DNA of 64,000 bases from Thermoanaerobaculia bacterium (GTDB lineage: Bacteria > Acidobacteriota > Thermoanaerobaculia > Gp7-AA8): positions 3,906-67,905 of the forward strand of contig DATDFB010000057.1 in NCBI GenBank assembly GCA_036522835.1. The letters run 5' to 3'. Numbering within the stretch: position 1 is the stretch's first letter; each line of letters opens with the position of its first letter. The notes beneath the pieces are model-generated. The model worked only from the letters and a program-made list of their open reading frames with translations, had not been told where the DNA came from and made no database searches. Positions 6,508 through 33,607 of this stretch are shown one piece after another. Position numbers and translations under genes: made by a program.

Positions 6508-6511
6508 GACG

Positions 6512-15135: not shown

Positions 15136-15145
15136 GTCGGAAAGG

Positions 15146-18479: not shown

Positions 18480-18484
18480 GGCGG

Positions 18485-19816
18485 TCATGCCGAGGCGATC
18501 ACTTTCAACTCGACGAGGATCGGCGTCGGCAGGGAATCGACGCCGACCGTCGTCCGCGTCGGCTGGATCTTTCCGAGCGTCTCCGCGTAGACGCGGTTGA
18601 AGCGCTCGAAGTCGCGCTTCATGTCGGTGAGGTAGACGGTGACGTCGAGAACTTTGTCGAGCGAGCTGCCGGCCTCCTCGAGGATCGCCCTGACGTTCGC
18701 GATCGTCGCGCGCGTCTGCGTCTCGATGTCGGGCGCCGGCACCTCTCCCGTCCCCGGTTTGCGCGGGCCGACGCCGGAGAGGAAGAGGAGGTTGCCGACG
18801 CGGCGCGCGTGCGGGTATGGGCCGACCGGCGGCGGCGCCTTCGGCGTGACGAGCACCTCAGGCGTCTCTTCGCCGGGCGGCGGCGCGGCTGCGGCGAGAA
18901 CGTTGTGCGTCTCCAGTCCCGTGCCGCTCGACTGCGCGAAGGTGATCGGCGCCCCTTCGTCGAACTCCTTCTCCCACTCGATCTCTTTCTGCGGGTTCGG
19001 CGTCAGCTCGACGATGGCGTTGCCGGTGCCCCACACCGGCTGGTAGTCCCACACCTTGCCGTCGTAGCGGTTGTGCTCTCCCATCAGCGCGGCCAGCCAC
19101 CAGATGGCCTTGAAGCCCATGTCGGCGTTCGCTTCGCGGGCGAAGTCGCGCGCGACCTGGGCCACGTCCTCGAGCCGCCCCTCGCCGAGCATCTCCAGGA
19201 TCTTGCGGTTCCACTCGTCGTCCTTCGCCGAGGAGACGCGGTCGTGGGCCGGGTCGATGTCGCCGACTTCGTAGCGGTTGGAGAGGTTCGTGACGACGAC
19301 GACGACGGTTTTCTTGCCGTAGTGGTCGATGGCCGCGCGGCCGGCCATGCCGAGGGCGCGCGTCTCCTCGCGCTCCGCGTAGATGTTGCAGGACACGACG
19401 GAGGCGGGGACGGCGTTGTCCGGATTGAGGAGCTTCAGCGCCACGACGGTGCCGGTGTCGATCGGAAAGCCGTGATAGCTCACCTCCGCCGCCTGCATGC
19501 CGTTCTGTTTGCAGATCGCGCAGTAGAGTTTTCCGAATTCCGGATCGACGCGGAACTCGTAGGGGATCTCGCCGAACTGGTACCAGTTCTGATCGACGAG
19601 GATCCACTTCGGCGCGGGGTCGGTCTGGAAGAGGTGGCCGATGACGGAGAACCACTGCGTGGAGTAGACGAGGATCAGCTCCGCGCCCGACGCGGCGATC
19701 TCGCGGCCGACGGCCTCGTAGCTCGCACGCAGCGACGCCCAGCCGGGGCTCTTCTCCGGCGCGAGCAGGACGTGGGGTTGGCCGGGGACGAGATAAGCCT
19801 TCTGGATCATGGCCAC
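18485..19816 (-). CDS. Fusion protein: class III (LigB-type) extradiol dioxygenase-like domain + RidA/YjgF/UK114 enamine-imine deaminase domain
   Basis: 443 aa. N-terminal ~290 aa is LigB/AmnB-like (AYLVPGQPHVLL, LILVYSTQWFSVIGH, SYHGFPIDTGTVVAL). A PPPGEETPEV linker follows. C-terminal ~125 aa is an unmistakable RidA domain (PPVGPYPHARRVGNLLFLSGVGP...QTRATIANVRAILEEAGSSLDKVLDVTVYLTDM.DF..FN.VY...PTRTTVGV..LP....VELKVIA). An alternative ATG lies at 19810. Confidence 0.78.
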   Translation of the reverse strand: MAMIQKAYLVPGQPHVLLAPEKSPGWASLRASYEAVGREIAASGAELILVYSTQWFSVIGHLFQTDPAPKWILVDQNWYQFGEIPYEFRVDPEFGKLYCAICKQNGMQAAEVSYHGFPIDTGTVVALKLLNPDNAVPASVVSCNIYAEREETRALGMAGRAAIDHYGKKTVVVVVTNLSNRYEVGDIDPAHDRVSSAKDDEWNRKILEMLGEGRLEDVAQVARDFAREANADMGFKAIWWLAALMGEHNRYDGKVWDYQPVWGTGNAIVELTPNPQKEIEWEKEFDEGAPITFAQSSGTGLETHNVLAAAAPPPGEETPEVLVTPKAPPPVGPYPHARRVGNLLFLSGVGPRKPGTGEVPAPDIETQTRATIANVRAILEEAGSSLDKVLDVTVYLTDMKRDFERFNRVYAETLGKIQPTRTTVGVDSLPTPILVELKVIASA

Positions 19817-19925
19817 GGAAAATTAGAACGCAGAATGCGAATGCAGAATGAAGAAAACGGAGTCCGTTGGCCAAGGCGCTCCGGTTTTCTCAATTCTGCA
19901 TTCGCATTCTGCGTTCTGAATTTCC
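19813..19925. repeat. ~110-bp hairpin repeat, AGAACGCAGAATGCGAATGCAGAATG family
   Basis: ccacggaaaattagaacgcagaatgcgaatgcagaatgaagaaaacgg ... ccggttttctcaattctgcattcgcattctgcgttctgaatttcc. Near-identical arms to 16330-16428 with a larger loop. Confidence 0.9.
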
Positions 19926-19930
19926 TTGAT

Positions 19931-20611
19931 TTAGTGGACGTACGTCTCCCGCTCGACGACGTCTTTCCGCGACTGGATGATCGACGTCGCGAGCAGCGCG
20001 CGCCGGCCGATCTCGTCCCACTGCGCGGTGCGCACGAGGTCCGGTACGGCGAGCGACGAGCCGAGGTTGACGGCGACGCAGCCGGCGTCGAGGTAGGGCT
20101 CGATCATGTCGAGGGCCACGGGGCCGCCGGCGAGCATCTGCACGTCGCGGATGGGGCCGCGGATGGTGCGGATGTAATCGGGGCCGCCGAGGTGCGGTGC
20201 CGGGTAGACCTTGACGATGTCGGCGCCCGCTTCCCAGGCGCGGATGATCTCGGTCGGCGTGGCCGCGCCGGCGATGGAGAGGAGGTCGTTCTCCGTCGCG
20301 TACTCGATGATCTGGTAGTCGGTGTGCGGCGAGACGATCACGTGCGCGCCGGCGCGGCGGGCCAGCGCGGCGTCGTTGGCGCTGCGCACGGTGCCGGCGG
20401 CGATGACTACGTCGGCCGCGGCGTAGCGAGCGGCGAGCTTGGCGATGAGCTCGAAGGCGTCAGGCGTGGTGAGCGTGACCTCGATGATGCGCACGCCGTT
20501 GCGCGCGTACGCGTCCGCCACGGCCTCGGCCGCCTCGGCGGAGTTTTCACGGACGACGCCGATGATCTGCTCGGTGCGGGCTTTTTCGAAAAGTTCGGTG
20601 CGGAGGGACAT
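19931..20611 (-). CDS. KDPG / 4-hydroxy-2-oxoglutarate aldolase (Eda) family class I aldolase
   Basis: 226 aa. GVRIIEVTLTTPDA (E-x-T motif), AGTV, ADIVKVYPA (Schiff-base Lys context), LAGGPV. The start is 9 nt after the kinase stop. Confidence 0.85.
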   Translation of the reverse strand: MSLRTELFEKARTEQIIGVVRENSAEAAEAVADAYARNGVRIIEVTLTTPDAFELIAKLAARYAAADVVIAAGTVRSANDAALARRAGAHVIVSPHTDYQIIEYATENDLLSIAGAATPTEIIRAWEAGADIVKVYPAPHLGGPDYIRTIRGPIRDVQMLAGGPVALDMIEPYLDAGCVAVNLGSSLAVPDLVRTAQWDEIGRRALLATSIIQSRKDVVERETYVH

Positions 20612-20620
20612 GGCCGAATT

Positions 20621-22891
20621 CTAGTTCAACCGCGCGGCCAGGTCCCTGAACTCCGTCTCCTCCCGCAACACATCCAGCCGCGGATCGACCTCGATGAACA
20701 CCAGCCACGCGCTCCGGTCCTCGTACGCCTCCCGCAGCTTCGCCAGCGCGGCCGCCTTCTCGCCCAACCCCGCATAAATGATCGCGATGTCGTACGGCGA
20801 GATGTAGCGCGTCTTGGCCTGCTCCGAGAGCATCGTCAGGATCAGCTCCGCCTCCCGCCGCTGACCGGCAATGGCGCGGGTGTGGCCGAGCATGGCCAGC
20901 AAGATCGGCACGCGGTCCGTCTCCAGCGCGCGCTGGAACGACTGCAACGCCTCCTCGTAGCGGCCCTGCTGCCCCAAGGCCATGCCGCGCCAGGCCTGGG
21001 CGGGGATGAACTTCTCGTCGAGCTCCAGCGCCTTCTCGAAGCGGCCGATGGCGGACTCGTAATCGCGCGCGAAATAGAACGGCCAGCCGCTGTGCACGAA
21101 GATGATGCGCGACAGCGGATCGAGCTCCACCGCCTTCTTCACCTGCTCGAGCGACGCGTCGAAGCGGCCGCGCGCGCAGAGGAGCATGGCGTAGCCGTCG
21201 TGCGCCGTCGCGTAGTTCGGATTCAGCTTGATGGCGCTCGTGTACGCCGCCTCCGCCCCCTCCCAATCCCACTCGTACCACCACTTCACCGCCGCCAGCG
21301 ACGCCCACGCCTCCGCGAGCGACCCGTCGATCTTCAGCGCCTGCTCGGCCGCCGCCTTCGCCTTCGGCATGGCCTCGCGCGGCGGCAGCGGGATGTTCGT
21401 CGCCAGCGTCATGAGGCTGTCGGCCAGCCCGGCGTACGCGCCGGCGAACGACGGATCGCTCTCGATGGCCTCCTGGAAGTGGACGATCCCCTTCTTCAGA
21501 CTCTCCTCGGTGCGCTTGTTCCACTGATAGCGCCCCTTGAGATAGAGCTGGTACGCCTCCGTGTTTTTCGTCGACGTCTTGCGCAGCCGCTTCTTCTCCG
21601 CGCCGGTGAGGCGGATGCGCAGCGCTTCGGCGATCTCCTGCGACATCTCTTCCTGCAGCGTGACGAGGTCGGCGATCTGGCGGTTGTACTGCTCGCCCCA
21701 GAGGTGCGCGCCATCGAGGGAGTCGACCAGCTCGACGTTGATGACGATGCGGTCGCCGACGTGCTTCACCCGCCCGCTCAACACCGCGCGCACGCGCAGG
21801 TCGCGGCCGACGGCGCGCGGGTCGACTTCGCGGCCTTTGTAGCGGAACACGGTGCTGCGCGCCATCACCTTGAGCTTCGGCAGTTGCGAGAGCTTGTTGA
21901 TGACACCCTCGGTCACGCCGTCGGAGAGATAGTCGGTCTCGGCGTCGGCGCCGCCGTTCTGGAACGGCAGGACGGCGATGGAGTCGATGGCTTTCGACTT
22001 CCGCGTGCGCGGGCGCGGCAGCAGGTCGATGCGCGTCGTGGAGCTCGACGAGATCGCGCGCAGCGTCAGCGCCAGGTCGCGCGCGGACTGAAACCGCTGC
22101 AGCGGGTTCTTTTCCACGCACCCTTCGATGACGCGCTGGAACTCCGGCGGCACGGCCTCGGCCAGCTCGTCACGCGAGACGTCTTCCTTGAGAATGGCCG
22201 CGATCGTGGCCGCGCCGGAGCCGCGCTGGAACGGCTTCTTCGACGTGACCATCTCGTAGAGGATGCAGCCGAGGGAAAAGATGTCCGCAGTGCCGTCGAC
22301 CGCCTCGCCCTTGAGCTGTTCCGGCGCCATGTAGGCGAGCGTCCCCACGATCGTCCCCGGATCGGTGCGGAACTTCCGCGTCGGCAGGTTGCCGGTGTCC
22401 TCGCCGGTGAGGTACGGGTCGGTCTGGGCGAGGCCGAAGTCGAGGATCTTGATGCGCCCTTCGCGCGTGAGGAAGACGTTCTCCGGCTTGAGATCGCGGT
22501 GGACCACGGCGCGCGAGTGCGCCGCCGCCAGGCCTTCGGCGATCTCCGCGCCGATGTCGACCGCGGCGCGCCATTCGATGATCGCGTTCGCGAGCCGGGC
22601 GCGCAGCGTCTCCCCTTCGAGCAGCTCCGTGACGACGAAGAAGGTGCCGTCCTGGTCGCCGTAGTCGAAGATGGAGAGGACGTTCGGGTGCGACAGCGAC
22701 GCGATGGCGCGCGCCTCGCGCTCGAAGCGCGCCAGGGCATCGGCGTCGCGCGCGGAATCGGGCAGCAGCACCTTGATGGCCACGTCGCGGCCGAGGCGGG
22801 GGTCGCGGCCGCGGTAGACCGCACCCATCCCTCCCTCGCCGAGGAGCGTAAGAACTTCGTACGGACCGACGCGGGAGCCTGAAGCCAGCAT
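20621..22891 (-). CDS. Ser/Thr protein kinase with TolB-like N-terminal-type domain and C-terminal TPR repeats
   Basis: GPYEVLTLLGEGGMGAVYRGRD...AIKVL (VAIK), HRDLKPENVFL, DFGLA, APE. Then IAVLPFQNGGADAETDYLSDGVTEGVINKLS and TPR units. Start chosen at MLASGSRVGPYEV (22891); in-frame ATGs at 22933 and 22939 would overlap the divergent mglA-like gene. Confidence 0.9.
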   Translation of the reverse strand: MLASGSRVGPYEVLTLLGEGGMGAVYRGRDPRLGRDVAIKVLLPDSARDADALARFEREARAIASLSHPNVLSIFDYGDQDGTFFVVTELLEGETLRARLANAIIEWRAAVDIGAEIAEGLAAAHSRAVVHRDLKPENVFLTREGRIKILDFGLAQTDPYLTGEDTGNLPTRKFRTDPGTIVGTLAYMAPEQLKGEAVDGTADIFSLGCILYEMVTSKKPFQRGSGAATIAAILKEDVSRDELAEAVPPEFQRVIEGCVEKNPLQRFQSARDLALTLRAISSSSTTRIDLLPRPRTRKSKAIDSIAVLPFQNGGADAETDYLSDGVTEGVINKLSQLPKLKVMARSTVFRYKGREVDPRAVGRDLRVRAVLSGRVKHVGDRIVINVELVDSLDGAHLWGEQYNRQIADLVTLQEEMSQEIAEALRIRLTGAEKKRLRKTSTKNTEAYQLYLKGRYQWNKRTEESLKKGIVHFQEAIESDPSFAGAYAGLADSLMTLATNIPLPPREAMPKAKAAAEQALKIDGSLAEAWASLAAVKWWYEWDWEGAEAAYTSAIKLNPNYATAHDGYAMLLCARGRFDASLEQVKKAVELDPLSRIIFVHSGWPFYFARDYESAIGRFEKALELDEKFIPAQAWRGMALGQQGRYEEALQSFQRALETDRVPILLAMLGHTRAIAGQRREAELILTMLSEQAKTRYISPYDIAIIYAGLGEKAAALAKLREAYEDRSAWLVFIEVDPRLDVLREETEFRDLAARLN

Positions 22892-22922
22892 GCCGAGCGG
22901 TCCAATGCTAATCTTTTCCGCA

Positions 22923-23822
22923 ATGGTCCTCATTAACAAAGCGATTAACGAAGTGACGGTGAAGCTCGTCTATTACGGACCCGGTCTGTGCGGGAAGACG
23001 ACCAACCTGGAGAAGATCTACGGAAACCCGAAGCTCGAGAACAAAGGGAAGATGATCTCGATGTCGACGGAGACGGACCGAACGCTCTTTTTCGACTTCA
23101 TGCCGATGGAGCTCGGCACGATCGGCGGCCAGAAAGTGCGCGTGCAGCTCTACACCGTGCCGGGGCAGGTGTTCTACGACGCCACGCGCAAGCTCGTGCT
23201 GCGCGGCGCGGACGGCGTGGTCTTCGTGGCCGACTCGCAGTCGTCGATGCGGGAGTCGAACCTCCAATCGCTCGAGAACCTGATCACGAACCTGCGCCTC
23301 AACCGCATCGATCCGCAGAAAATCGCGCTCGTCTTTCAGTACAACAAGCGCGACCTGCCGAACGTCGACAGCGTCGAGGACATGAACGGATACCTGCATC
23401 CCGACGGCATTCCGGTCGTCGAGGCGGCGGCGATCAACGGCACCGGAGTGACGGCCACGCTGCGCACGGCGGTGGCGCGGATCCTCGACAACCTGAAGAA
23501 GGGCGTCGACACGACGCTGCACGAGGAGCCGGAGCTGGCGCCGCCGGACTTGAGCGTGGGGCTGTCGGGAAAACCTGTCGATCCGTTCGCACCAGTCGAC
23601 GAAGAGCCATTCGAGGCCGATGTCGCCGTGGCGGTGGCCGAGGAGGAGACGGAGGACCCGTTCGCGGCGCCGGCGGCGGAGATCCACGACACGGGCGCCG
23701 AGCGCGCCGAGCTCGAGGCCATGCTGGCGGGGGCGCGCGAGGTCGTGGCCTCGCTCGAAGCCGCGCTCGAGAAAGCGCGCCACCAGGAACGGCGGCTCGC
23801 GGATAAACTCGGCGCGCTTTGA
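22923..23822 (+). CDS. mglA: MglA-family Ras-like small GTPase with ~105-aa acidic C-terminal extension
   Basis: MVLINKAINEVTVKLVYYGPGLCGKTTN has the same N-terminal spacing as Myxococcus MglA. SMSTETDRTLFFDFMP, YTVPGQVFYDATRKL (MglA-specific TVPGQ), QYNKRDLP. The tail EEPELAPP...VDPFAP...EDPFAAP...AELEAMLAGAREVVASLEAALEKARHQERRLADKLGAL is not found in canonical MglA. Confidence 0.9.
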   Translation: MVLINKAINEVTVKLVYYGPGLCGKTTNLEKIYGNPKLENKGKMISMSTETDRTLFFDFMPMELGTIGGQKVRVQLYTVPGQVFYDATRKLVLRGADGVVFVADSQSSMRESNLQSLENLITNLRLNRIDPQKIALVFQYNKRDLPNVDSVEDMNGYLHPDGIPVVEAAAINGTGVTATLRTAVARILDNLKKGVDTTLHEEPELAPPDLSVGLSGKPVDPFAPVDEEPFEADVAVAVAEEETEDPFAAPAAEIHDTGAERAELEAMLAGAREVVASLEAALEKARHQERRLADKLGAL

Positions 23823-24520
23823 CCTGGTTCCACGAATGGTTCGGCGAGGAGTACCTCGCGCTCTACTCGCATCGTGACGACGACGAGGCGAGGCAGCAGG
23901 TCGTCTTCTTCAAAGAGCATTGCGGCGCCGTGCGCGGGCCGCTCCTCGACCTCGCCTGCGGCAAGGGGCGGCACATCGCCGAGCTGCGCGCCGCCGGCTA
24001 TGGCGCGGTCGGCTGCGACCTCTCCTTCACGCTGCTGCGCACCGGCCGCGCCGAGTACGGGCCGCTCCCGGTGGCGCGCGCGGACATGCGCGCGCTGCCG
24101 TTCTGCACGGCGGGCTTCGCCGGCCTGGTGAGCTTCTTCACCTCGTTCGGGTACTTCTCGGTTGAGGAGGAAAACGTGGCCGTCGTACGCGAGATGGCGC
24201 GCGTGCTGGAAAAGGGGGCGGTGTTCCTCTTCGACTACCTGAATCTGCACCGGGAGCTGGAGAAACTGGTGCAGCGCGAGACGCGCGGCGACGTCACGAT
24301 CGAGCGCTGGTTCGACTCGCAGGACCGCTCGTTCAACAAACGGATAACAATCGGACAAAAGCGCTACCTGGAGCGCGTTCGCGGATACGATCTCGACGAG
24401 ATCTCGATGATGTTCACGACGGCGGGCCTGACGATTCGCGCCGCGTTCGGCGATTTCCTCGGTGCGCCGTTCGAAATGAGCTCGCCGCGGCTGATCGTGC
24501 TGGGGACGAAGAATCGATGA
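23819..24520 (+). CDS. Class I SAM-dependent methyltransferase (candidate bacillithiol N-methyltransferase, NmbA-like by context)
   Basis: 233 aa. TTG start overlaps the mglA-like stop (TTGA). LLDLACGKGRHIAELRAAGYGAVGCDLS (motif I) and FAGLVSFFTSFGYF. The gene end overlaps the bshC start (ATGA). The NmbA assignment is contextual inference only. Confidence 0.8.
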   Translation: MTWFHEWFGEEYLALYSHRDDDEARQQVVFFKEHCGAVRGPLLDLACGKGRHIAELRAAGYGAVGCDLSFTLLRTGRAEYGPLPVARADMRALPFCTAGFAGLVSFFTSFGYFSVEEENVAVVREMARVLEKGAVFLFDYLNLHRELEKLVQRETRGDVTIERWFDSQDRSFNKRITIGQKRYLERVRGYDLDEISMMFTTAGLTIRAAFGDFLGAPFEMSSPRLIVLGTKNR

Positions 24521-26004
24521 CGATTCAGTTCCCGCTGGACTGTTATCCCGGGTTCAACCGATTCGTCCTCGACTGGCTCGGCGGCGATGCGAGGTTTCTT
24601 TGTCGCGGTGCCCACTCGGTAGGGGCGCACGGCGTGCGCCCGCGGCAACTTGCCGACGCGCTGATCGAATCCAACAAACGCTGGGGCCTCTTCGTCGACG
24701 ACGACGTCCGCCGCTGGCAACGCGGTGAAGGCATGACCGTCATCGCCGGCCAGCAAACCGGCTTCGCCGGCGGCCCTCTCTACACGCTCGTCAAGATCGC
24801 CACGCTCGTGCGGATGAAGCGCGACAACGAAGCGCGCGGCATCCCCACCACCGTCTTTTTCTGGCTGGCAACCGAGGATCACGACTTCGCCGAGGTGGCA
24901 AGCGTTGCCTTTCCAGCGGGCGACGCGCGCGCGCAGCGCGACCTCGTCTACCTCCGCGCCGCGCGCGCCGTGGAGACGCGCGACGTCGTCGGCCCGCAGC
25001 CCGTCCCGCCGGTGCTGATCGACGAGCTCCTTGCGTTTTTCAACATGCCGCGGCCGCCGTGGCTGCGCGAAGGGATCTCGTTCCGCGACTCCTTCGCGGA
25101 GCTGATCGCCGGCGTCTTTCCGCGCGACGTCGTGCTCGTCGATGCGCTGCTGCCGGAGCTGCGGCGCGCGGGAGCGCCGCTCTTCGCATCGATCGTGTCG
25201 ACGTGGGACGCGATTCAGAGCGCGCTCGCCACGCGCGCCGCCGAGCTGACCGCCGCCGGCTACACGCCGCAAGTCGCGCCGCGCGAGAACGGGCAGTACA
25301 CGCTGCTCTACGAGATCGGCGAGCGCGGCAACCGCGAAATCACCGACAAAGCGGCCGTGCCGGAATGGACATCCACGTCGGCGCTCACGCGGCCTTTGCT
25401 GCAGGACTCCGTGCTGCAACCTGACGTCTTCGTCGGCGGGCCGGCCGAGGTCGCGTACTACGCGCAGATCGCGCCGCTGCACGAAATGCTCGGCATTGCC
25501 ATGCCGCGCGTTGCGCTGCGCGCGCACGCGCTCATCGCGCCGAAGCGCATCGCCCGCGCGATCGAGCGCTACGACATCAAACCGGAGGACATCTTCACGA
25601 GCGCGGATGAACTGCTGGCCACGCGCGAGCCGGAAGGCGTCGCCACGATTCGCGAAGCGGCGGAAAAGGGCCGCAAAGAGCTGACGGACGTTTTCACGCA
25701 GATCGGCGACGTCGCATTTCCCGCCGATCACGCCATTGCCAGAAGAGTCAGCCGCTCCATCGGCCACATCGAGTACCACTTCGACAAGCTCGCCGAGCGG
25801 GCCACGCGCTCGCTCGTGCGCAAGGACCGCGAGCGCTACGCCGCGGTGCGCGAGCTCGTGGCCGCGCTCTTCCCCGACCGCCAGGTGCAGGACCGCGTCG
25901 CCGGCTGGTTTGCCTACTGGAGCGAATCCGGCAACCATCTCGTCGAGCGCTTGATCGAGGAGATCGAGCCGGACAGCGACGTCTGCAGGATCGTGACGCT
26001 ATGA
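24517..26004 (+). CDS. bshC: Bacillithiol biosynthesis cysteine-adding enzyme
   Basis: 495 aa. VIAGQQTGFAGGPLYTLVKIATLV matches the BshC hallmark (GGQQxGxxxGPLYTxxK). Length and position next to bshB/bshA also fit. Confidence 0.82.
   Translation: MTIQFPLDCYPGFNRFVLDWLGGDARFLCRGAHSVGAHGVRPRQLADALIESNKRWGLFVDDDVRRWQRGEGMTVIAGQQTGFAGGPLYTLVKIATLVRMKRDNEARGIPTTVFFWLATEDHDFAEVASVAFPAGDARAQRDLVYLRAARAVETRDVVGPQPVPPVLIDELLAFFNMPRPPWLREGISFRDSFAELIAGVFPRDVVLVDALLPELRRAGAPLFASIVSTWDAIQSALATRAAELTAAGYTPQVAPRENGQYTLLYEIGERGNREITDKAAVPEWTSTSALTRPLLQDSVLQPDVFVGGPAEVAYYAQIAPLHEMLGIAMPRVALRAHALIAPKRIARAIERYDIKPEDIFTSADELLATREPEGVATIREAAEKGRKELTDVFTQIGDVAFPADHAIARRVSRSIGHIEYHFDKLAERATRSLVRKDRERYAAVRELVAALFPDRQVQDRVAGWFAYWSESGNHLVERLIEEIEPDSDVCRIVTL
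24618..24641. repeat. Half copy of the GGTAGGGGCGCACGGCGTGCGCCC palindrome, in frame inside bshC
   Basis: ggtaggggcgcacggcgtgcgccc translates as VGAHGVRP in the BshC N-terminal region. Full copies lie at 32153-32209 and 53541-53589. Confidence 0.8.
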
Positions 26005-26720
26005 AACCCGTCGACGCCATCTTCTTCGACGCCCATCCCGACGACATCGAGCTCTCCTGCGGCGGCACGATCGTCGACTTCGTCAGCCGCGGCCTCAGGG
26101 TCGGCATCATTGACCTCACCAGCGGCGAGATGGGGACGCGCGGCACGCCCGAGACGCGCCGCCGCGAGGCCTCCGCCTCCGCCGAGATCCTCGGCGCGTC
26201 CTTCCGCGAGCAGCTCGACTTCGGCGACGGCGCCCTCCGCACCGGCCGCGAGGAAGAGCTGCAGATCATCGGCGTCATCCGCAAGTACCGCCCGAAAATC
26301 ATCTTCGCGCCGTGGCCCGACGAGCGCCATCCCGACCACGCCCGTGCCGGGCGCCTCATCACCGAGGCGTCGTTCTACGCGGGGCTGCGCGCGCTGGAGA
26401 CGGCGCTGCCCGCGCACCGCCCGCAGGTCACGATCTACTACCTGCAGAACTACCTTCCGCCGATCAGCTTCGTCGTCGACGTGTCGAAGGCGTGGCCGAC
26501 GAAGATGCGCGCCATCGGCGCCTTCGAGTCGCAGTTCTACAAACCGAATTCGACCGAGCCGGAGACGTTCATCGCCAAGAAGTCGTTTCTCGACATGATC
26601 GAGGCGCGCGGCCGCCACTTCGGCGCGCTCATCGGCGCGGAGTACGGCGAGGCCTACGTGACGAAGCAGCCGCCGAAGATCGAGGACGTGATCGCGGCGT
26701 ACAGCGGGAGGGAACCGTGA
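26001..26720 (+). CDS. bshB: N-acetyl-alpha-D-glucosaminyl L-malate deacetylase (PIG-L/LmbE family)
   Basis: 239 aa. FFDAHPDDIELSCGGTI (AHPDD...GG), DLTSGEMGTRG, ERHPDHARAG. ATGA overlap with bshC. Confidence 0.85.
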   Translation: MKPVDAIFFDAHPDDIELSCGGTIVDFVSRGLRVGIIDLTSGEMGTRGTPETRRREASASAEILGASFREQLDFGDGALRTGREEELQIIGVIRKYRPKIIFAPWPDERHPDHARAGRLITEASFYAGLRALETALPAHRPQVTIYYLQNYLPPISFVVDVSKAWPTKMRAIGAFESQFYKPNSTEPETFIAKKSFLDMIEARGRHFGALIGAEYGEAYVTKQPPKIEDVIAAYSGREP

Positions 26721-27841
26721 GAATCGGCATCACCTGCTACCCCACCTTCGGCGGCTCCGGCGTGGTAGCCACGGAGCTCGGCATCGCTCTGGCCAAGATG
26801 GGCGACGACGTCCACTTCATCAGCTACGCGCCGCCGTCGCGGCTCAACATCCTCCACGAGCGCGTGCGCTTCCACGAAGTCACGGTCACGCCGTATCCGC
26901 TCTTCGATCCGTTCCCGCCGTACACGCTGGCGCTGGCGACGAAGATGGCGGAGATCGCCGAGTACGAGCGCCTCGACGTGCTGCACGTGCACTACGCGAT
27001 CCCGCACGCCATCAGCGCCCACCTCGCCCGCGAGATCCTCGGCGACAAGATGCGCTTCGTCACCACCCTGCACGGCACCGACATCACCCTCGTCGGGCGC
27101 GACGCGTCGTATCTGCCGATCACGAAGTTCGGCATCGAAGTCTCCGACGGCGTCACGGCCGTGTCGCATTGGCTGCGCGACGAGACGGAGAAGAACTTCG
27201 GCACGAAGAAGGAGATCGCCGTCATCCCGAACTTCGTCGATCCGCTGCGCTTCCAGCGCCACGAGAGCGCGTTCTGCCACCTCTTCGGCGACGCCGGCGA
27301 CCGCCTCCTCTGCCACGTCTCGAACTTCCGTCCCGTGAAGCGGATCATGGACGTGCTGGCCGTCTTCGAGCGCGTGCTGCGCGTGATCCCGAGCCGCCTG
27401 GTGATGATCGGCGACGGCCCCGACCGTTCCAAGGCCGAGGCGTTCTGCCGTCAACATCATTTGAAGGACCGCGTCTTTTTCCTCGGCAATGTTCCGAATC
27501 TCGAAGAGATCGTCGGCGCCAGCGACGTGTTCCTCCTGCCCAGCGAGCACGAGTCGTTCGGCATGGCCGCGCTGGAGGCGATGGCCTCGGAAGTCCCGGT
27601 CATCGCCACGCGCGCGGGCGGACTGCCCGAGGTCGTGGTCGACGGCGAGACCGGATACCTCCTGCCGGTCGGCGACGTCGACGCCATGGCCGAGCGCGCC
27701 ATCGCCATCCTCACCGACAAGGTCCTGCAGCGCCGCCTCGGGCGCGCCGGACGCGCGCTGGCGGAGGAGCAGTTCAACGTGAACCGCGTCGTGCCGATGT
27801 ACCGCGAGTTCTATGAGAAGTTCCTGGTTCTTCGTTCTTAG
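26717..27841 (+). CDS. bshA: N-acetyl-alpha-D-glucosaminyl L-malate synthase (GT4)
   Basis: GTG start overlapping the bshB stop (GTGA). VRIGITCYPTFGGSGVVATELG, LHVHYAIPHA, TTLHGTDITLVG, HVSNFRPVKR, ESFGMAALEAMASEVPVIATRAGGLPEVV closely parallel Bacillus BshA. Confidence 0.88.
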   Translation: MRIGITCYPTFGGSGVVATELGIALAKMGDDVHFISYAPPSRLNILHERVRFHEVTVTPYPLFDPFPPYTLALATKMAEIAEYERLDVLHVHYAIPHAISAHLAREILGDKMRFVTTLHGTDITLVGRDASYLPITKFGIEVSDGVTAVSHWLRDETEKNFGTKKEIAVIPNFVDPLRFQRHESAFCHLFGDAGDRLLCHVSNFRPVKRIMDVLAVFERVLRVIPSRLVMIGDGPDRSKAEAFCRQHHLKDRVFFLGNVPNLEEIVGASDVFLLPSEHESFGMAALEAMASEVPVIATRAGGLPEVVVDGETGYLLPVGDVDAMAERAIAILTDKVLQRRLGRAGRALAEEQFNVNRVVPMYREFYEKFLVLRS

Positions 27842-27852
27842 TTCTTGGTTGG
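27821..27852. repeat. GTTCTT-rich half element at a convergent gene junction
   Basis: ttcctggttcttcgttcttagttcttggttgg. Related to the arms at 30363-30440. It encodes the last codons and stops of both bshA (+) and the transglycosylase (-). Confidence 0.65.
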
Positions 27853-29892
27853 TCGGGCGTAGATCTCCGCGTAGTTCTCGTACGAATTCAGCACCTTGCG
27901 CACGTAGTCCTTCGTCTCGTCGAAGCTGACGGCGGTGAGGAAGAAGTCGTCGCCGGGGCCGGCGGCGAGGCGCGACCAGAGCGCGGCCTGCTTCGGGCCG
28001 GCGTTGTAGGCGGCGGCGATCTTGTAGCGGTCGCCGCCGAGCTCTTTCGACAGCGTGGCCACGTACTTCGCGCCCAGGCGGATGACGACGCGCGGGTCGT
28101 AGAGATCGTCTTCGTCGACGTCGACGAGGCCGATGTCGCGGCCGATCTGCCGCGCCGTGGTGATGATGAGCTGCAGGAGACCTCGCGCCGCCGCCTCCGA
28201 CTTCGCGCGCGGATCGAAGCGCGACTCCTCGCGCATGATGGCGAAAAGCAGCGTCGGATCGGCGCTGTAGCTCTTCGCGTCGGCCTCGATGAAGCTCGCG
28301 AAGTAGCGCGGATAGAGCAGCTCGCGGACGACGCGCGGGAGGAGCTGCGGGACGAAGTCGTCGGGCACGCCGTTCATCACCGTCTCGATGGCGCGGATCG
28401 ACTCGTGCGAGGCATTGCCGAGGTTCAGGGCGAGCGATTGCGTGAGGCCGCTCTGCATGGGGTGCAGCGGCCAGATCTTCGGGATGTCGTCGGCCGCCTC
28501 GTCGAAGAGGCCCATGGCCATGAGCTGTTCGGCGCGCGAGGCATCGGGCGGGAGAGGGACGTGCGGGAAGGGGAGCGGCTTCAGGTCGAGGACGGCCTTG
28601 TACGGCGGCTTCTGTTGGTAGCTCGCGGCAATTTGCTTCAGGTCCGGCTGGAAATGCAGCCGCTGCCGCGCGAAGTAGGCGAAGTGCGTCGGCACGGTGG
28701 CGTGGATGACCCGGAGATAGGCCTCGCGCGACGCCTGCGGATTCGACGACTCCAGCGCGCGGCCGCGCCAGTAGTCGATCTCGTACGGATCGAATTTGTC
28801 GAGCAGGTTCCGCGGGATGGCGTTCAGCGTGACGACGCACGCGCCGGCGTTCCCCGCGCCGAGCATGCCGACGGCGTAGGCGAGCGAGGCGTCGACGAGC
28901 GCGCGGTCCTTCGGGAAGAGCTTGCGCATCGCCGCCAGATCCGCCGCCGCATCGGCAAAGCGCCGCTGCTTAAGGCGCGTGCGCAAACGCTGCGTCAACG
29001 CGGCGGCGGTCGAGGCCGTGCGCGCCGGCACGGCGATGGCCTGCGTCATGAGCTGCTCCGCGCCGGCGTCATTCCCCTGCAGTTGCGCGGCGCGCGCGGC
29101 ATGCCAGAGGAAGGTAATCTTCATTGCCGCGCTCTTCGTCTGCTGCGCGCCGCGGAGGTACGTCGCCTGCGCCTGCGCAAACTTTTCGTCGCCGTAGTAG
29201 GCGCGGCCGATCGAAAAGGTGATGTCGTCGCTCGGCGGCACGGAACCGAGCAGCGCCACGGCGCGGTCGAAGTGGCGGTGGTTGAGCATGGCCGTGCCGA
29301 GGAGAATTCTCTGTGGCGGCGTGAGCCGCGCGCGCAGCTCCGCCGTGTCGAGAGCGCGCGCGACGTGCTCCGCGGCGTCGTCCATCGTGCCGCCGGCGAG
29401 GATGGCCAGACACGCCGCGCCGTTCCGCGACGCTTCGGCGAGGCGCGCCTGAATGTCGCGTGACGGCGGAAGCCGCTGCGCGAACGCCGACAGCCGCTGC
29501 GGGTCCTTCATGAGGTATTCGACTTCGTCCTCGATGGCTTGCTGGCGATAGAACGCGTGCGGGTACTCGAAGATCAGCGTTTGCCGGTCGCGGCTCGCCG
29601 CCTCGCCGTCCTCGATCTCGGCCTTGTGGTAGAGCGCAAGGTCGCGGAAGGGATTCCCCGGCGCGAGGAACGGCGCCAGCTCTTTCGCCGCGGCAGCGCG
29701 CTCATTGCGGTCGACGAGAAGCCGGGCACGGAGGTACGAGGGCGCCGGCGCAGCCGGCAGCGCCGTCCTCTCGACACGAAAGACCCGCCGGCGCGCCACG
29801 CGCTGCCGCGCGGCGACGATCCCGAGAATGACGACGATCAGGATGAGGGCAGCAAGGGCGGAAAGGAGAAGGACGAGTCGTTTCTTCGTCAA
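27838..29892 (-). CDS. Soluble-lytic-transglycosylase-like (Slt70-type) murein transglycosylase with N-terminal anchor
   Basis: 684 aa. TTG start in TTGA overlap with the upstream ORF. N-terminal TM LVLLLSALAALILIVVILGIV, a long superhelical repeat region, and a C-terminal SLT domain LFAIMREESRFDPRAKSEAAARGLLQLI...AAYNAGP. Confidence 0.88.
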   Translation of the reverse strand: MTKKRLVLLLSALAALILIVVILGIVAARQRVARRRVFRVERTALPAAPAPSYLRARLLVDRNERAAAAKELAPFLAPGNPFRDLALYHKAEIEDGEAASRDRQTLIFEYPHAFYRQQAIEDEVEYLMKDPQRLSAFAQRLPPSRDIQARLAEASRNGAACLAILAGGTMDDAAEHVARALDTAELRARLTPPQRILLGTAMLNHRHFDRAVALLGSVPPSDDITFSIGRAYYGDEKFAQAQATYLRGAQQTKSAAMKITFLWHAARAAQLQGNDAGAEQLMTQAIAVPARTASTAAALTQRLRTRLKQRRFADAAADLAAMRKLFPKDRALVDASLAYAVGMLGAGNAGACVVTLNAIPRNLLDKFDPYEIDYWRGRALESSNPQASREAYLRVIHATVPTHFAYFARQRLHFQPDLKQIAASYQQKPPYKAVLDLKPLPFPHVPLPPDASRAEQLMAMGLFDEAADDIPKIWPLHPMQSGLTQSLALNLGNASHESIRAIETVMNGVPDDFVPQLLPRVVRELLYPRYFASFIEADAKSYSADPTLLFAIMREESRFDPRAKSEAAARGLLQLIITTARQIGRDIGLVDVDEDDLYDPRVVIRLGAKYVATLSKELGGDRYKIAAAYNAGPKQAALWSRLAAGPGDDFFLTAVSFDETKDYVRKVLNSYENYAEIYARPTKN

Positions 29893-30338
29893 ACGTCATC
29901 TCGGGCCAGCGTTCCCGACAGAACTGCGTGCGGGGCGCGCCTGAGAATCTCGTTCTTAGCAATCGCGTAGCCAAGGATCGCGTCGACCAGCACCCGCCGC
30001 CCGTCCGCGGAGAGCAGCACCAGAATCTTCCGCTTGATCTCGCGGATCTCCACGATCTCCTCCCAGCGCAGCCACCGCCCCGGCTTCCCGAGCCACGACA
30101 GCACGCGGTTCTCGTACATCACGCCGTCGTCGCTGAAATAGATGTGGTCGCCGTACTGCACCGCCGCCGCGGCGAGCGTGCCGAGGAAGAGGAGCACCAG
30201 CACCGTCAGCGTGAACGGCTCGATCTCCTTCGCGCCGTGCGAGAGGTAGTCGAACACCAGCGCCGCCGAGGCGAACGTCGCCGCGCAGGAGATGAGCCGC
30301 GCGATGGGCGTTCGGTCGAAGCGGAGGATACGGTTCAT
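29889..30338 (-). CDS. Small membrane protein (two TM segments plus PH-like soluble domain), unknown function
   Basis: 149 aa. Hydrophobic segments LISCAATFASAALVF and FTLTVLVLLFLGTLAAAAV. Translationally coupled to the transglycosylase gene. No family firmly recognised. Confidence 0.6.
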   Translation of the reverse strand: MNRILRFDRTPIARLISCAATFASAALVFDYLSHGAKEIEPFTLTVLVLLFLGTLAAAAVQYGDHIYFSDDGVMYENRVLSWLGKPGRWLRWEEIVEIREIKRKILVLLSADGRRVLVDAILGYAIAKNEILRRAPHAVLSGTLARDDV

Positions 30339-30362
30339 GTATGGCGTAGAACGAATTGTGCG

Positions 30363-30440
30363 GGGTTCTTAGTTCTTAGTTCTTGGTTCTTAAGTTTTGC
30401 CGAAACCCAAGAACCTAACAACATAAGAACCTAAGAACCA
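30363..30440. repeat. Low-complexity hairpin (TTCTTAG repeats / CTAAGAA repeats)
   Basis: ggttcttagttcttagttcttggttcttaagtttt-gccgaaa-cccaagaacctaacaacataagaacctaagaacc. It occupies most of the 118-bp divergent gap upstream of proS. Confidence 0.8.
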
Positions 30441-30456
30441 CTACAATCCCCCGCCC

Positions 30457-32157
30457 ATGCGCTGGAGCCAGTCCTTCATTCACACCCTGCGCGAAGTTCC
30501 GGCCGACGCGGACGTCGTCAGCCAGAGACTGATGATGCGCGCCGGCATGATCCGCAAAGTAGCCGCCGGAATTTACACCTATCTCCCCCTCGGCCTCCGT
30601 TCGATGCAGAAGCTCGAGGCCATCATCCGCGAGGAGATGAACCGCGCCGGCGCGGTGGAGCTCCTCGGGCCGACCATCCACCCGGGCGAGTTGTGGATGG
30701 AGTCGGGACGCTGGCAGCGCTACGGCAAGGAGCTCCTGCGCATCAAAGACCGCCACGAGCGCGACTTCGTCTACGGCCCCACGGCCGAGGAGGTCGTGAC
30801 CGACGCCGTGCGGAACACGCTCAACTCCTATCGACAGCTCCCGATCAACCTCTATCAGATCCAGACCAAGTTTCGCGACGAAGTGCGGCCCCGCTTCGGC
30901 CTCATGCGCGGGCGCGAGTTCACCATGAAGGACGCGTACTCCTTCCACGCCACGGCATCGTCGCTCGACGAGACGTACGAGAAGATGCGCGACGCCTACA
31001 GCGCCATCTTCCGCCGCTGCGCGCTCGACCACGTGCCGGTCGAGGCCGACACCGGCAACATCGGCGGCAGCGCCTCGCACGAGTTCATGGTGCTGGCGCA
31101 GTCGGGCGAGGACGCGGTCGTGTCGTGCCCCAACTGCCGCTACGGCGCGAACGTGGAGAAGGCCACGTCGAAGTTCTTCCTCGACGAGCCGGAGCCCGCG
31201 CCGATGGAAGCGATGGCCGAATTGCACACGCCGGGAACGCAGACGATCGACGACGTCGGCCGCTTCCTCGGCAAGCCGACCTCGCAGCTCGTCAAGACCC
31301 TCGTCTTCGACACCGACAAAGGGTGTCTGATGGTCCTCGTGCGCGGCGACCGCGAGGGGAACGAGGTCAAGATCAAGAACGTCTCCGGCGCCGAGTGGAT
31401 GGAGATGATGCCCGACGCGCGCTTCGAGGAGGCCACGGGCGGCCCGGTCGGCTATTGCGGTCCGGTCGGGACGAAGGCGGCACGCGTGATCGCCGACGTA
31501 TCGCTCAAAGGCCACGTCAACTGGATCGTCGGTGGCAATAAGAAGGACTACCACCTCGGCGGCGCGAATCCCGGCCGCGACTTCCCCGAGCCGGAGTACG
31601 CCGACGTCACGACCGTCTTCGCCGGCGATCCCTGTCCGCGCTGCGGCACGCCGCTGGAGATCAACCGCGGCATCGAGGTCGGCCATGTGTTCAAGCTCGG
31701 AACGAAGTACTCCGAGCCGATGGGCTGCACGTTCCTCGATGAGAACGGCGAGCGCAAGCCGATGATCATGGGCTGCTACGGCTTGGGCGTCGGCCGCACG
31801 GTCGCCGCCGCGGTGGAGCAGAGCCACGACGACGACGGCATCATCTGGCCGATCCCGATCGCGCCGTACACCGTCGTCGTGACCGCGCTCGGCAAAGAGG
31901 AGAGCGTGCGCGCGACGGCCGAGGAGGTCTACGCGAAGCTCCTGGCCGCCGGCGTCGACGTGCTCTTCGACGACCGCGACGAGCGCCCCGGCGTGAAGTT
32001 CAAGGACGCGGATCTGATCGGTTTTCCGCTGCGCATCGCCGTCGGCGCGAAGAGCCTGGCGAACGGCGTCATCGAGTGGAGCTGGCGCAAGGATCGCGCG
32101 AAGCAGCTCGGGCCGCCGGGCGAGGTGGTGGAGACGGTCATAACGGCCGCTCGGTAG
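30457..32157 (+). CDS. proS: Proline--tRNA ligase (bacterial type with editing domain)
   Basis: 566 aa. MRWSQSFIHTLREVPADADVVSQRLMMRAGMIRKVAAGIYTYLPLG, class II motifs FRDEVRPRFGLMRGREFTMKDAYSF and GCYGLGVGR, anticodon-binding C-terminus. The stop TAG lies inside a palindromic repeat. Confidence 0.97.
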   Translation: MRWSQSFIHTLREVPADADVVSQRLMMRAGMIRKVAAGIYTYLPLGLRSMQKLEAIIREEMNRAGAVELLGPTIHPGELWMESGRWQRYGKELLRIKDRHERDFVYGPTAEEVVTDAVRNTLNSYRQLPINLYQIQTKFRDEVRPRFGLMRGREFTMKDAYSFHATASSLDETYEKMRDAYSAIFRRCALDHVPVEADTGNIGGSASHEFMVLAQSGEDAVVSCPNCRYGANVEKATSKFFLDEPEPAPMEAMAELHTPGTQTIDDVGRFLGKPTSQLVKTLVFDTDKGCLMVLVRGDREGNEVKIKNVSGAEWMEMMPDARFEEATGGPVGYCGPVGTKAARVIADVSLKGHVNWIVGGNKKDYHLGGANPGRDFPEPEYADVTTVFAGDPCPRCGTPLEINRGIEVGHVFKLGTKYSEPMGCTFLDENGERKPMIMGCYGLGVGRTVAAAVEQSHDDDGIIWPIPIAPYTVVVTALGKEESVRATAEEVYAKLLAAGVDVLFDDRDERPGVKFKDADLIGFPLRIAVGAKSLANGVIEWSWRKDRAKQLGPPGEVVETVITAAR

Positions 32158-32224: not shown

Positions 32225-33607
32225 ATGCGCAAGACCTTTCTTTTGCTCGCGTTAACTGCGGCTCTGCCCGCCTTTGCCCAGAACACCGACATCGAGTCCC
32301 TCTCCGGCCTGCAATTCAATTTCGGCAACCCCGGCGCCCGCTCCCTCGGCATGGGCGGCGCGTTCCTCGGCCTCGCCGACGACGCCTCGGCCGCCGAGGC
32401 GAACCCGGCCGGGCTCACCATCCTGCGCAAGCCCGAGGTCTCCATCGAGATCCGCAACTACGTCGAGCAGCAGACCTTCACCACCACCGGCACCTATCCG
32501 GACATCAGCCGCACCGACTTCAACCATTACAGCCAGCGCGTCCCCATCACCTTCGCCAGCGCGGTTTACCCGTACAAGAACGCCACCTTCGGCCTCTACT
32601 ACCACGAGGCGCTGCGCAATCAAGGCTCGGGGCAGGTCATCCCCATCCGCAACGAATTCAGCGGCGCGGTGACGGCCGACGTCCCGAACTTCTACCTCGC
32701 CAAGGGCGGGACCGCTCCGGTCACGCGCGATCAGTGCATCGCCATCAACGTCGCGGCGAAGGACGACTTCGCCTGCCTGCAGTACACCATCCTTCCGTTC
32801 CTCAGCGCGCTCGACGTCACCGAGCGCACGTTCGGCCTGGCCGGCGCGTACAAGATCGGCAAGTTCTCCTTCGGCGGCACCGTGCGCTACCAGCGCTTCA
32901 ACGAGACCGCGTTCACCTTCCGCGTCACGCCGGACTTCGATTTCTCGTCGATCTCCGTGCAGGCCACGAGTGACATCCGTGAGAACAGCGACAAGGCGAA
33001 GGACGTCAGCGACGTCACCTTCACCGCGGGCGTGAAGTGGACGCCGAACGACCGCTTCAGCGCCGGCGCGGTCTACAAGCAGGGGGCGCGCTACAAGGCC
33101 CCCACCTTCGCCGCGAACGAGGATACAAACTTCGACTTCGTCAAAGTCTCCGACACGACCTTCCACATCCCCGACATCTTCGGCGCCGGCGTTTCCGTCC
33201 GGCCCATCCCGGTGCTGACGGTCAACGTCGACGCCGTGCGGGTGAAGTACTCGAACCTCGTCGACAACTTCGTCTCCATCAACGAGTCGGTGCGCGAGAT
33301 CGACCAAGCCTACAAGGCTCCCGACGTCACGGAGCTCCACGCCGGCGCGGAGTACTTCTTCGCGACGAAGATTCCGCTGGCGCTGCGCGTCGGCTGGTGG
33401 CACGACCCGGCGCACTCGATCGAATACCGCGGACCGCTGAGCACGCCCGACCGCGTCGCCGCGGCGATCCTCTACCCGCGCGGCGAGTCGCAGAACCACC
33501 GCTCCATCGGCGCGGGATTAGCGTGGCCGCGATTCCAGGTTGATGCCGCGTATGACACCTCACCGCACTACAAGGTCGCCTCGGTTTCGATGGTTGCTCG
33601 TTTCTAG
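32225..33607 (+). CDS. Outer-membrane beta-barrel protein, FadL/TodX (OMPP1)-like
   Basis: 460 aa. Signal peptide MRKTFLLLALTAALPAFAQ, GARSLGMGGAFLGLADDASAAEANPAGL (FadL-family N-terminal motif), alternating beta-strand pattern, C-terminal ...SMVARF. Confidence 0.72.
   Translation: MRKTFLLLALTAALPAFAQNTDIESLSGLQFNFGNPGARSLGMGGAFLGLADDASAAEANPAGLTILRKPEVSIEIRNYVEQQTFTTTGTYPDISRTDFNHYSQRVPITFASAVYPYKNATFGLYYHEALRNQGSGQVIPIRNEFSGAVTADVPNFYLAKGGTAPVTRDQCIAINVAAKDDFACLQYTILPFLSALDVTERTFGLAGAYKIGKFSFGGTVRYQRFNETAFTFRVTPDFDFSSISVQATSDIRENSDKAKDVSDVTFTAGVKWTPNDRFSAGAVYKQGARYKAPTFAANEDTNFDFVKVSDTTFHIPDIFGAGVSVRPIPVLTVNVDAVRVKYSNLVDNFVSINESVREIDQAYKAPDVTELHAGAEYFFATKIPLALRVGWWHDPAHSIEYRGPLSTPDRVAAAILYPRGESQNHRSIGAGLAWPRFQVDAAYDTSPHYKVASVSMVARF

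Follow-up and report, generated by a model that had tools for sequence, protein, structure and literature searches.

Do an MglA-like GTPase gene and the bacillithiol (BSH) genes that directly follow it form one functional unit, and does the methyltransferase gene between them turn the product into the antioxidant thiol N-methyl-bacillithiol (N-Me-BSH)? Both questions are raised by five consecutive genes (22923-27841) in a stretch of 64,000 nucleotides (nt) of an uncultured Thermoanaerobaculia bacterium (phylum Acidobacteriota; contig DATDFB010000057.1 of assembly GCA_036522835.1), hereafter called the window. An earlier note, made from the sequence of this stretch alone, had read the genes for the GTPase, the methyltransferase, BshC, BshB and BshA as a five-gene translationally coupled unit. 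We consider it likely that there are two units placed end to end: an MglA gene with its own promoter, and an nmbA-bshC-bshB-bshA cassette making N-Me-BSH, to which the GTPase gene is a lineage-specific neighbour.

The five open reading frames (ORFs) are co-directional on the forward strand and have no internal stops. In a window with 67% GC overall, and 64-70% along its whole length, their GC content at third codon positions (GC3) is 0.87-0.95, like that of other real genes of the window. The 4-nt overlaps claimed for all junctions are present, as TTGA (23819-23822), ATGA (24517-24520), ATGA (26001-26004) and GTGA (26717-26720). This series of four overlaps is real, yet unexceptional, since it is typical of a tight operon in a high-GC genome and further overlaps of 4 nt occur elsewhere in the window (13502/13505 and 42085/42088). 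As start of the GTPase gene, the ATG at 22890 is disfavoured; 22923 is preferred because the N-terminus MVLINKAINE is invariant in homologues and because the conserved TGCTAATCT falls between both ATGs. An Rfam scan of 20000-31000 gave no match.

The last three genes had been named as those of the BSH pathway in reverse pathway order, and this is correct according to curated models, Pfam, a PDB match and motifs. BshA matches TIGR03999 over its full length (residues 1-370 of 374) with 510.9 bits against a cut-off of 273.7. BshB reaches 272.3 bits for TIGR04001 (cut-off 182.5), has a PIG-L domain and carries the metal-binding motifs AHPDD and HPDH. The remaining protein is, judging from its sequence, a clear but divergent and somewhat short BshC; with 495 amino acids (aa) it is about 35-45 residues under the typical length. 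Both Pfam domains, Rossmann-like_BshC (PF10079, 129.7 bits) and CC_BshC (PF24850, 53.1 bits), score above the cut-off of 27, the sole PDB match is Bacillus subtilis BshC (4wbd, 9.2e-24), and the motif GQQxGxxGGPLYTxxK is found. The motifs quoted in the earlier note, GQQTGFAGGPLYTLVK, AHPDD/HPDH, GITCYPTFGGSG and HGTDIT, were all confirmed.

The methyltransferase had been put forward as a candidate for NmbA, and the comparison with Chlorobaculum tepidum NmbA (CtNmbA) agrees with this. A pairwise BLASTP alignment gives 2e-31 with 32% identity and covers 97% of the window protein; over the comparisons made, identity is 32-34%, and the lengths are 233 and 266 aa. In a phmmer search the best PDB match is 9ri2, labelled 'bacillithiol methyltransferase NmbA from Chlorobaculum tepidum' in the fold library, with an E-value of 4.6e-24 (residues 2-229 on 15-259), the next match being 5e-9. 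With a profile of 68 diverse family members, 9ri2 scores 2.4e-68 and the next structure 1.5e-27, so that its lead over other solved methyltransferases grows from 15 to 40 orders of magnitude. According to the NmbA structure paper (bioRxiv 10.1101/2025.07.06.663066), an NmbA orthologue has a BLAST E-value <= 1e-20, a coverage > 80%, an identity > 25% and a similar length; the window protein lies within all of these limits, although the E-values here are not those for a RefSeq-sized database. The residue numbers of that paper match the 9ri2 chain exactly, allowing a comparison site by site. Six of the seven named residues of the S-adenosylmethionine (SAM) site or of substrate binding and entry are kept, CtNmbA W16, W20, R70, Y134, F135 and K198 corresponding to W3, W7, R51, Y112, F113 and K174, while H31 is replaced by S17. 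In the 68 family members, conservation of the six kept residues is complete or at least 90%, while position 17 varies. SAM motif I, described for CtNmbA as (V/I/L)(L/V)(D/E)(V/I) followed by AxGxG, reads LLDLACGKGRH in the window protein and VLDIACGAGRH in CtNmbA, Methyltransf_25 and Methyltransf_11 are above the Pfam cut-off, and an AlphaFold2 model has a seven-strand Rossmann fold with a predicted local distance difference test (pLDDT) of 91.9.

The methyltransferase might also be a look-alike, a class I enzyme with some other amine or small molecule as its substrate, in which case the operon would make plain BSH. The identity to CtNmbA of just one third and the serine at the position of H31 are compatible with this, and most BSH-positive Acidobacteriota have no NmbA (bioRxiv 10.1101/2025.07.06.663066). 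NCBIfam holds no NmbA model, its best named model being an unrelated weak match. At the fold level, a Foldseek search with the model ranks 9ri2 third (1.6e-18), on a par with CypM and CcbJ. Such a result is expected, because the CtNmbA crystal structure has an unusual Cap-domain strand topology, forming a narrow basket, that AlphaFold models do not reproduce (bioRxiv 10.1101/2025.07.06.663066). Against a look-alike stand the 15 to 40 orders of magnitude that separate NmbA from other solved methyltransferases, the published identity and coverage limits within which the protein falls, and the residue pattern, in which the one exchanged position is also the one that the family does not conserve. 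The gene context described below argues in the same direction, so that we find a look-alike distinctly unlikely. By every sequence and context test run, the methyltransferase is assigned to the NmbA family, and the proposal of the earlier note is supported in this respect.

The context evidence begins in the window, where bshC, bshB and bshA all follow the methyltransferase gene in the same overlapping operon. As context evidence for METHYLTRANSFERASE, the end of the methyltransferase gene runs 4 nt into bshC in 37 of 42 related genome loci. A single-sequence search with the methyltransferase returned close relatives only (70-100% identity, with uninformative names), and other lineages of the family were reached with a profile search and a search with representatives. 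The exhaustive search yielded 312 clusters (50% identity) at E <= 1e-30; CtNmbA matches all 150 listed family representatives, 21 of which are nearer to CtNmbA than to the window protein. Two proteins of the representative set are fusions of the methyltransferase with BshC, P0251 (807 aa, with 264.8 bits for the BshC part) and P0369 (670 aa). Five family members of other lineages (35-45% identity, one labelled Calditrichia) all lie directly before a gene with both BshC Pfam domains, which is followed by a PIG-L deacetylase gene in three cases and also by a GT4 transferase gene in two. Upstream of these distant cassettes (L163-L167) are genes for SseB-like proteins, an NAD-dependent epimerase, a HAD hydrolase or small unknowns, and a GTPase gene in none. 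Because of these fusions and of the bshC adjacency in distant lineages, the predicted nmbA-bshC(-bshB-bshA) cassette can be regarded as a widespread unit. Around distant bshC genes (26-32% identity), bshA, bshB, methyltransferase and GTPase genes were not detected nearby using the proteins of the window.

Some further arrangements were seen in this family and its neighbourhood. P0363 (486 aa) is an NmbA-family methyltransferase fused to an N-terminal VTT/DedA-type membrane domain. In three divergent relatives a Fur-family regulator gene lies directly after bshA on the same strand (L053 15630-18202, L065 15112-15630 and L068 15245-15781), and in L053 feoB comes next. This may reflect a link of the thiol with iron or peroxide regulation.

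The first gene was called MglA-like in the earlier note, and its product is a bona fide MglA by PDB matches and Group 1 motifs. Residues 2-198 of the protein match M. xanthus MglA (5ymx) with an E-value of 7.4e-67, and the match to T. thermophilus MglA (3t12) is 1.4e-52. In Group 1 MglA proteins, TVPGQ replaces DxxGQ in G3, and an intrinsic arginine finger stands beside the G2 threonine (PMC4316618). The window protein contains GPGLCGKT, DRT (with the arginine finger beside the G2 threonine), TVPGQ and NKRD; T78-V-P-G-Q82 and R53-T54 are invariant in 41 homologues. All close homologues (281-387 aa) share an extension, residues 196-299 in the window protein of 299 aa. It consists of an acidic part with (E/D)DPF or NPF-like repeats and of a 42-residue helix with the pattern LLxxAxxVVxxLExALExARxxE. 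In the AlphaFold2 model, built on a shallow alignment of 41 close homologues, only the terminal helix 257-298 is confident (pLDDT 89-96); the linker is below 50 and the G domain is poor (mean pLDDT 57.6). A scan of 25 window proteins (6040-41577) revealed no Roadblock/MglB gene, and none lies within 6 kb of the GTPase gene in L161 and L162. The window protein can be classed, by its sequence, as a tailed Group 1 MglA that is an orphan locally. Orphans of this group are known, and Group 1 MglA has been reported in Acidobacteria, with gene neighbourhoods that vary widely (Wuichet and Sogaard-Andersen 2014, PMC4316618). By analogy with MglA elsewhere, it most likely acts as a polarity or motility switch and not as a step of thiol synthesis.

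How far the GTPase gene is tied to the bsh genes was followed in a scan with one genome per species, giving 80 loci, all in Acidobacteriota and mostly in metagenome-assembled genomes of Thermoanaerobaculia. The order GTPase, methyltransferase, bshC is found on the same strand in 46 loci, with bshB and bshA next wherever the contig continues (it ends first in three). Five loci have GTPase-bshC-bshB-bshA without the methyltransferase, and 15 have at least 2.5 kb downstream of the GTPase gene with no bsh genes. In one locus the contig stops after the methyltransferase gene, and 13 are uninformative since the contig ends. The loci without bsh genes contain no runs of N, so the absence there is real. 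The GTPase gene thus precedes (nmbA-)bshCBA in 51 of the 66 informative species-level loci.

The junction between the GTPase and methyltransferase genes is, in relatives, the only loose one. The gap has a median of 94.5 nt and a maximum of 1188 nt; it is above 100 nt in 23 of 46 loci and zero or less in 6, whereas the medians are -4, -1 and -1 at the three other junctions. Of the spacers of 40-600 nt, 19 of 31 fold unusually stably (z < -2), that of the closest relative (L081) with -72 kcal/mol. The window junction has no hairpin. Several relatives have long, near-perfect palindromes in this spacer, down to -100 kcal/mol over 150 nt (L044 11018-11167, L054, L082, L089, L038 and L081), and several of these are composed of short repeats, for example GATGAAGG/CCTTCATC. 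Such palindromes may represent U-less terminators or insertions resembling repetitive extragenic palindromes (REP) or miniature inverted-repeat transposable elements (MITE).

Just before the methyltransferase gene, a -10-like hexamer ending 6-13 nt from the start is found in 29 of 60 loci (TAGACT 18, TACACT 5, TACAGT 3). No Shine-Dalgarno sequence accompanies it, as would fit a promoter of the leaderless type. The same test is positive in 1 of 60 loci for a control window and in 0 of 69, 1 of 69 and 2 of 66 for the starts of bshC, bshB and bshA. In the window the hexamer is TAAACT, 9 nt before the TTG start and at the position of the hexamer in relatives. It arises from the AT-ending codons GAT AAA CTC, among the last of the GTPase gene, whose GC3 is 88%. 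In some loci with an unlinked GTPase gene (L085 4699-7248, also L086-L088 and L102), the gene before nmbA encodes an MprF-type lysyl-phosphatidylglycerol synthase and ends 15 nt before nmbA, followed by ATAGACT.

A similar picture is seen for the GTPase gene, where 86 of 88 loci have a TAnnnT hexamer 5-40 nt before the start (TAAGCT 50, TAATCT 9, TAACAT 9, and others). In the window, neither the GTPase nor the methyltransferase gene has a Shine-Dalgarno sequence, and both start 8-9 nt after a -10-like hexamer, which suggests leaderless-type mRNAs. Among relatives, the leaderless form of the GTPase gene alternates with a leadered form carrying GGAGG.

Both units are also found apart. A BshC-centred metagenome scan gave nine methyltransferase-bshC-bshB-bshA loci without an adjacent GTPase gene, eight of them with at least 5 kb of GTPase-free upstream sequence. 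Contig Ga0157376_10000002 (684,532 bp) carries the cassette near 111-115 kb and a 73%-identical tailed GTPase near 369 kb, about 255 kb apart. There the GTPase gene (+) stands between genes for an aldolase (-) and a cation-efflux protein (-), a context shared by L001 and its relatives. In a neighbour-joining tree, the unlinked GTPases form a clade of 14 loci, sister to the GTPase of the window. A second paralogue was considered for them and rejected, as the upstream synteny (cyclase, LigB, aldolase) is shared. Because of this shared synteny, the unlinked GTPases hold the ancestral GTPase position, and it is the bsh block that sits elsewhere. The tail is kept equally in bsh-linked and unlinked copies and can still be recognised in L073 and L075, which are distant homologues. 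Tailed MglA homologues that are more distant (L075, L076 and L078), for example a Vicinamibacteria locus, have no bsh neighbours.

Several observations weigh against a division into two units. The most divergent relatives, with a BshC of about 40% identity, lack the neighbouring kinase, SLT and ProS genes and keep GTPase-methyltransferase-bshCBA; the GTPase-bsh adjacency outlasts the surrounding synteny. Of the 6 genome loci without the methyltransferase gene, 5 have the GTPase stop at -4 to +3 nt from the start of bshC. The GTPase and methyltransferase genes overlap by 4 nt in six loci, the window among them. In the window, the TTG start and the lack of a ribosome-binding site suggest that translation of the methyltransferase depends on ribosomes finishing the GTPase. 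A scan of 22300-28300 for consensus promoters and terminators found no promoter-like site and terminator-like sites at chance level; the sigma-70 consensus is uninformative in a 67% GC acidobacterium, and comparative conservation was used instead. We infer the internal promoter before nmbA by comparing relatives only. On the side of the cassette, BshC stays under the curated equivalog cut-off of TIGR03998 (236.1 bits against 265.8).

Read together, the adjacency in 51 of 66 loci, even where other flanks differ, the tight spacing to bshC when the methyltransferase gene is missing, and the overlap with its TTG start would fit a single functional unit in which the tailed GTPase takes part in or controls BSH synthesis. 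Long coiled-coil-type helices, found in both BshC and the GTPase tail, would fit it too. In such a unit the GTPase could be a nucleotide-dependent partner or scaffold of BshC, or a switch tying thiol synthesis to the cellular state. This is opposed by the persistence of both partners about 255 kb apart, by a tail and GTPase that are equally conserved in unlinked copies, by the loose junction with its hairpins and promoter-like element, and by the cassettes of other lineages that have no GTPase. Strong adjacency also has a parallel at this locus. The divergent KDPG/KHG aldolase gene upstream is also kept in several of the most divergent relatives, and, being equally conserved, it shows frozen synteny without an obvious functional reason. 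Well-studied BSH producers such as Bacillus are not known to have MglA. We regard a single unit as unlikely, and the GTPase adjacency probably represents synteny rather than function.

From the claim of a five-gene unit, it stands that the linkage is not unique to this genome; its functional unity is opposed by the junction, the promoter-like element, the separation and the GTPase-free cassettes. The -10-like element before nmbA also speaks, at the level of sequence inference only, for thiol genes transcribed from an internal promoter independently of the GTPase gene. According to the earlier note, the arrangement was not known to be described, and no description was found in the searchable literature: the one paper retrieved for MglA combined with bacillithiol concerned an unrelated 'MglA' of Francisella.

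One narrower form of partnership deserves mention. The BshC reaction has never been reconstituted, possibly for want of a cofactor, substrate or protein (PMC5790435), and no later reconstitution was found in a literature search. The tailed MglA might be a working partner of the BSH machinery, either as the extra protein of BshC, which it would activate or supply in a GTP-dependent way via its long C-terminal helix, or as a redox-linked switch with an output coupled to the N-Me-BSH supply. This would account for the GTPase gene staying beside bshC even where nmbA is lost, but we judge it very unlikely.

The divergent neighbour of the GTPase gene suggests another connection. It encodes a Ser/Thr protein kinase with TPR repeats and is found upstream of the GTPase gene in 29 of 80 genome loci. 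An interaction of MglA with the kinase MasK has been reported for M. xanthus, as have TPR proteins that serve as effectors of MglA. Kinase and GTPase could then be a signalling pair that regulates the bsh operon, the bsh genes being the output of a polarity-type module. However, the divergent group keeps GTPase-nmbA-bshCBA without the kinase, the unlinked clade also has no kinase, and no DNA-binding component is present; a signalling pair is therefore highly improbable. Because the kinase gene is absent from both groups, it is a later insertion between the aldolase and GTPase genes. The aldolase gene lies directly upstream of the GTPase gene in L056, L062, L063, L071, L001, L161 and L162. The kinase ORF extends to 22939, and its probable start is the ATG at 22891.

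In the two-unit model preferred here, the GTPase gene would have its own promoter of the extended -10 type, giving an mRNA with little or no leader. For the cassette, enzyme activities are taken from the characterised families. BshA would couple UDP-N-acetylglucosamine with L-malate, BshB would take off the acetyl group, and BshC would attach cysteine to give BSH, after which the NmbA-family methyltransferase, with SAM, would methylate the cysteine amine. Given this gene context and the characterised biochemistry of the enzyme families, N-Me-BSH is the most likely product. The ATGA and GTGA overlaps would couple translation of the cassette genes and so keep synthesis in step. In this genome, the spacer between both units would have collapsed to the 4-nt overlap. 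Here nmbA-bshCBA is probably expressed by read-through and coupling from the GTPase gene, to which the embedded TAAACT might add a second start.

The positions of all features are given in Table 1. At the 3' end, bshA and the convergent SLT gene overlap in their stop codons (TAG at 27839-27841 for bshA, 27838-27840 on the reverse strand for the SLT gene), leaving no intergenic room for a terminator. No other BSH-related genes were found among the 25 window proteins scanned. The ORF 18401-22882 (forward strand, 1493 aa), antisense to the aldolase and kinase genes, was rejected as a shadow ORF of 67% GC DNA. Elsewhere, the window contains two clusters with extracytoplasmic function (ECF) sigma factors (6040-7854 and 13502-15195), one with LTXXQ/Metal_resist periplasmic proteins and the other with HEAT-repeat and DUF4097 proteins downstream. 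A protein of 659 aa (33540-35519, forward strand) has a signal-peptide-like N-terminus and no Pfam match at E <= 1e-4.

Table 1. Features of the five-gene locus and its flanks, with positions in the window
Feature	Position	Strand	Description
KDPG/KHG aldolase	19931-20611	-	Ancestral divergent neighbour of the GTPase gene; Pfam Aldolase 4.1e-36
Ser/Thr protein kinase	20621-22891	-	C-terminal TPR repeats; Pkinase 176 bits and TPR; divergent neighbour, outside the operon
Extended -10-like TGCTAATCT	22906-22914	+	8 nt before the GTPase ATG, no Shine-Dalgarno; putative promoter
GTPase	22923-23822	+	299 aa; Group 1 MglA-family small GTPase with C-terminal extension (PDB matches, motifs)
GTPase G domain	22923-23507	+	Residues 1-195
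GTPase linker	23508-23690	+	Residues 196-256; acidic, DPF-rich, disordered
GTPase terminal helix	23691-23816	+	Residues 257-298; long, conserved
-10-like hexamer TAAACT	23804-23809	+	Candidate internal promoter; 9 nt before the methyltransferase TTG, at the position of the hexamer in relatives
nmbA candidate	23819-24520	+	233 aa; TTG start, no Shine-Dalgarno; predicted class I SAM-dependent N-methyltransferase, NmbA (N-methyl-bacillithiol synthase) family
bshC	24517-26004	+	495 aa; putative cysteine-adding enzyme of bacillithiol synthesis, divergent and short copy
bshB	26001-26720	+	239 aa; predicted GlcNAc-malate deacetylase, BshB1 type; TIGR04001
bshA	26717-27841	+	374 aa; GTG start with GGGAGGG before it; predicted GT4 glycosyltransferase, N-acetyl-alpha-D-glucosaminyl L-malate synthase; TIGR03999
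SLT-domain lytic transglycosylase	27838-29892	-	Convergent, marks the 3' end of the unit; SLT 88.7 bits

Judging from its sequence, the cassette offers a compact, clonable four-gene source for N-Me-BSH, and no measurement of such a thiol exists for its phylum. The overlap with bshC, the adjacency in distant lineages and the NmbA-BshC fusions provide independent context evidence for the NmbA family as a bacillithiol enzyme. The link to the GTPase would matter only if it were functional; since the BshC reaction is unreconstituted (PMC5790435), any conserved BshC partner would be worth a direct test, but the evidence suggests that the GTPase is a neighbour and not a partner. For research on bacterial polarity GTPases, Acidobacteriota offer a small lead of a different kind in their tailed MglA without MglB.

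According to PMC6282198 and bioRxiv 10.1101/2025.07.06.663066 (PDB 9ri2), the N-Me-BSH genes of C. tepidum are those for BshA (CT0548), BshB (CT1419), BshC (CT1558) and NmbA (CT1040). The same four enzyme families are found in the window, and its methyltransferase is a full-length CtNmbA homologue with six of the seven named residues. In C. tepidum the locus tags are far apart and the genes evidently unclustered, whereas the window has one overlapping cassette in reverse pathway order; its methyltransferase is about 33% identical, with H31 replaced by Ser, and its BshC is short and under the curated cut-off. As stated in the earlier note, orthologues for N-Me-BSH synthesis have been predicted in Acidobacteria: nmbA was reported in 33% of the BSH-positive members (Hiras et al. 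2018, PMC6282198), and most Acidobacteriota with the pathway lack NmbA while some have it (Hammerstad et al. 2025, bioRxiv 10.1101/2025.07.06.663066). The words 'operon' and 'gene neighbo(u)rhood' are absent from the latter text.

In B. subtilis (PMC5790435), the homologous bshA and bshB1 are in an operon with mgsA, and bshC is separate, with panE. There, too, BSH genes sit in operons beside genes of unrelated or loosely related function, and bshC is transcribed from a promoter of its own as well as by read-through from the upstream gene. Unlike the window, B. subtilis has no NmbA and no GTPase neighbour, and its bsh genes are not all in one operon. Compared to M. xanthus MglA, the G domain of the window GTPase is about 60% identical over 197 residues, with TVPGQ in G3, the arginine finger and NKRD in G4. 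The M. xanthus protein has 195 residues without extension, whereas the window GTPase has about 100 more, forming the linker and the 42-residue helix. A typical coupled Group 1 MglA has the gene of an MglB (Roadblock/LC7) GAP alongside, in contrast to the window GTPase, which has the thiol-biosynthesis cassette alongside and no MglB among the scanned neighbours. The distant cassettes and fusions (L163-L167, P0251 and P0369) share the order and tight spacing of methyltransferase, bshC, PIG-L and GT4 with the window, but have no GTPase gene upstream. The pathway is known and was already predicted for Acidobacteria, its arrangement here is more compact than in model organisms, and the MglA adjacency is best read as lineage-specific synteny.

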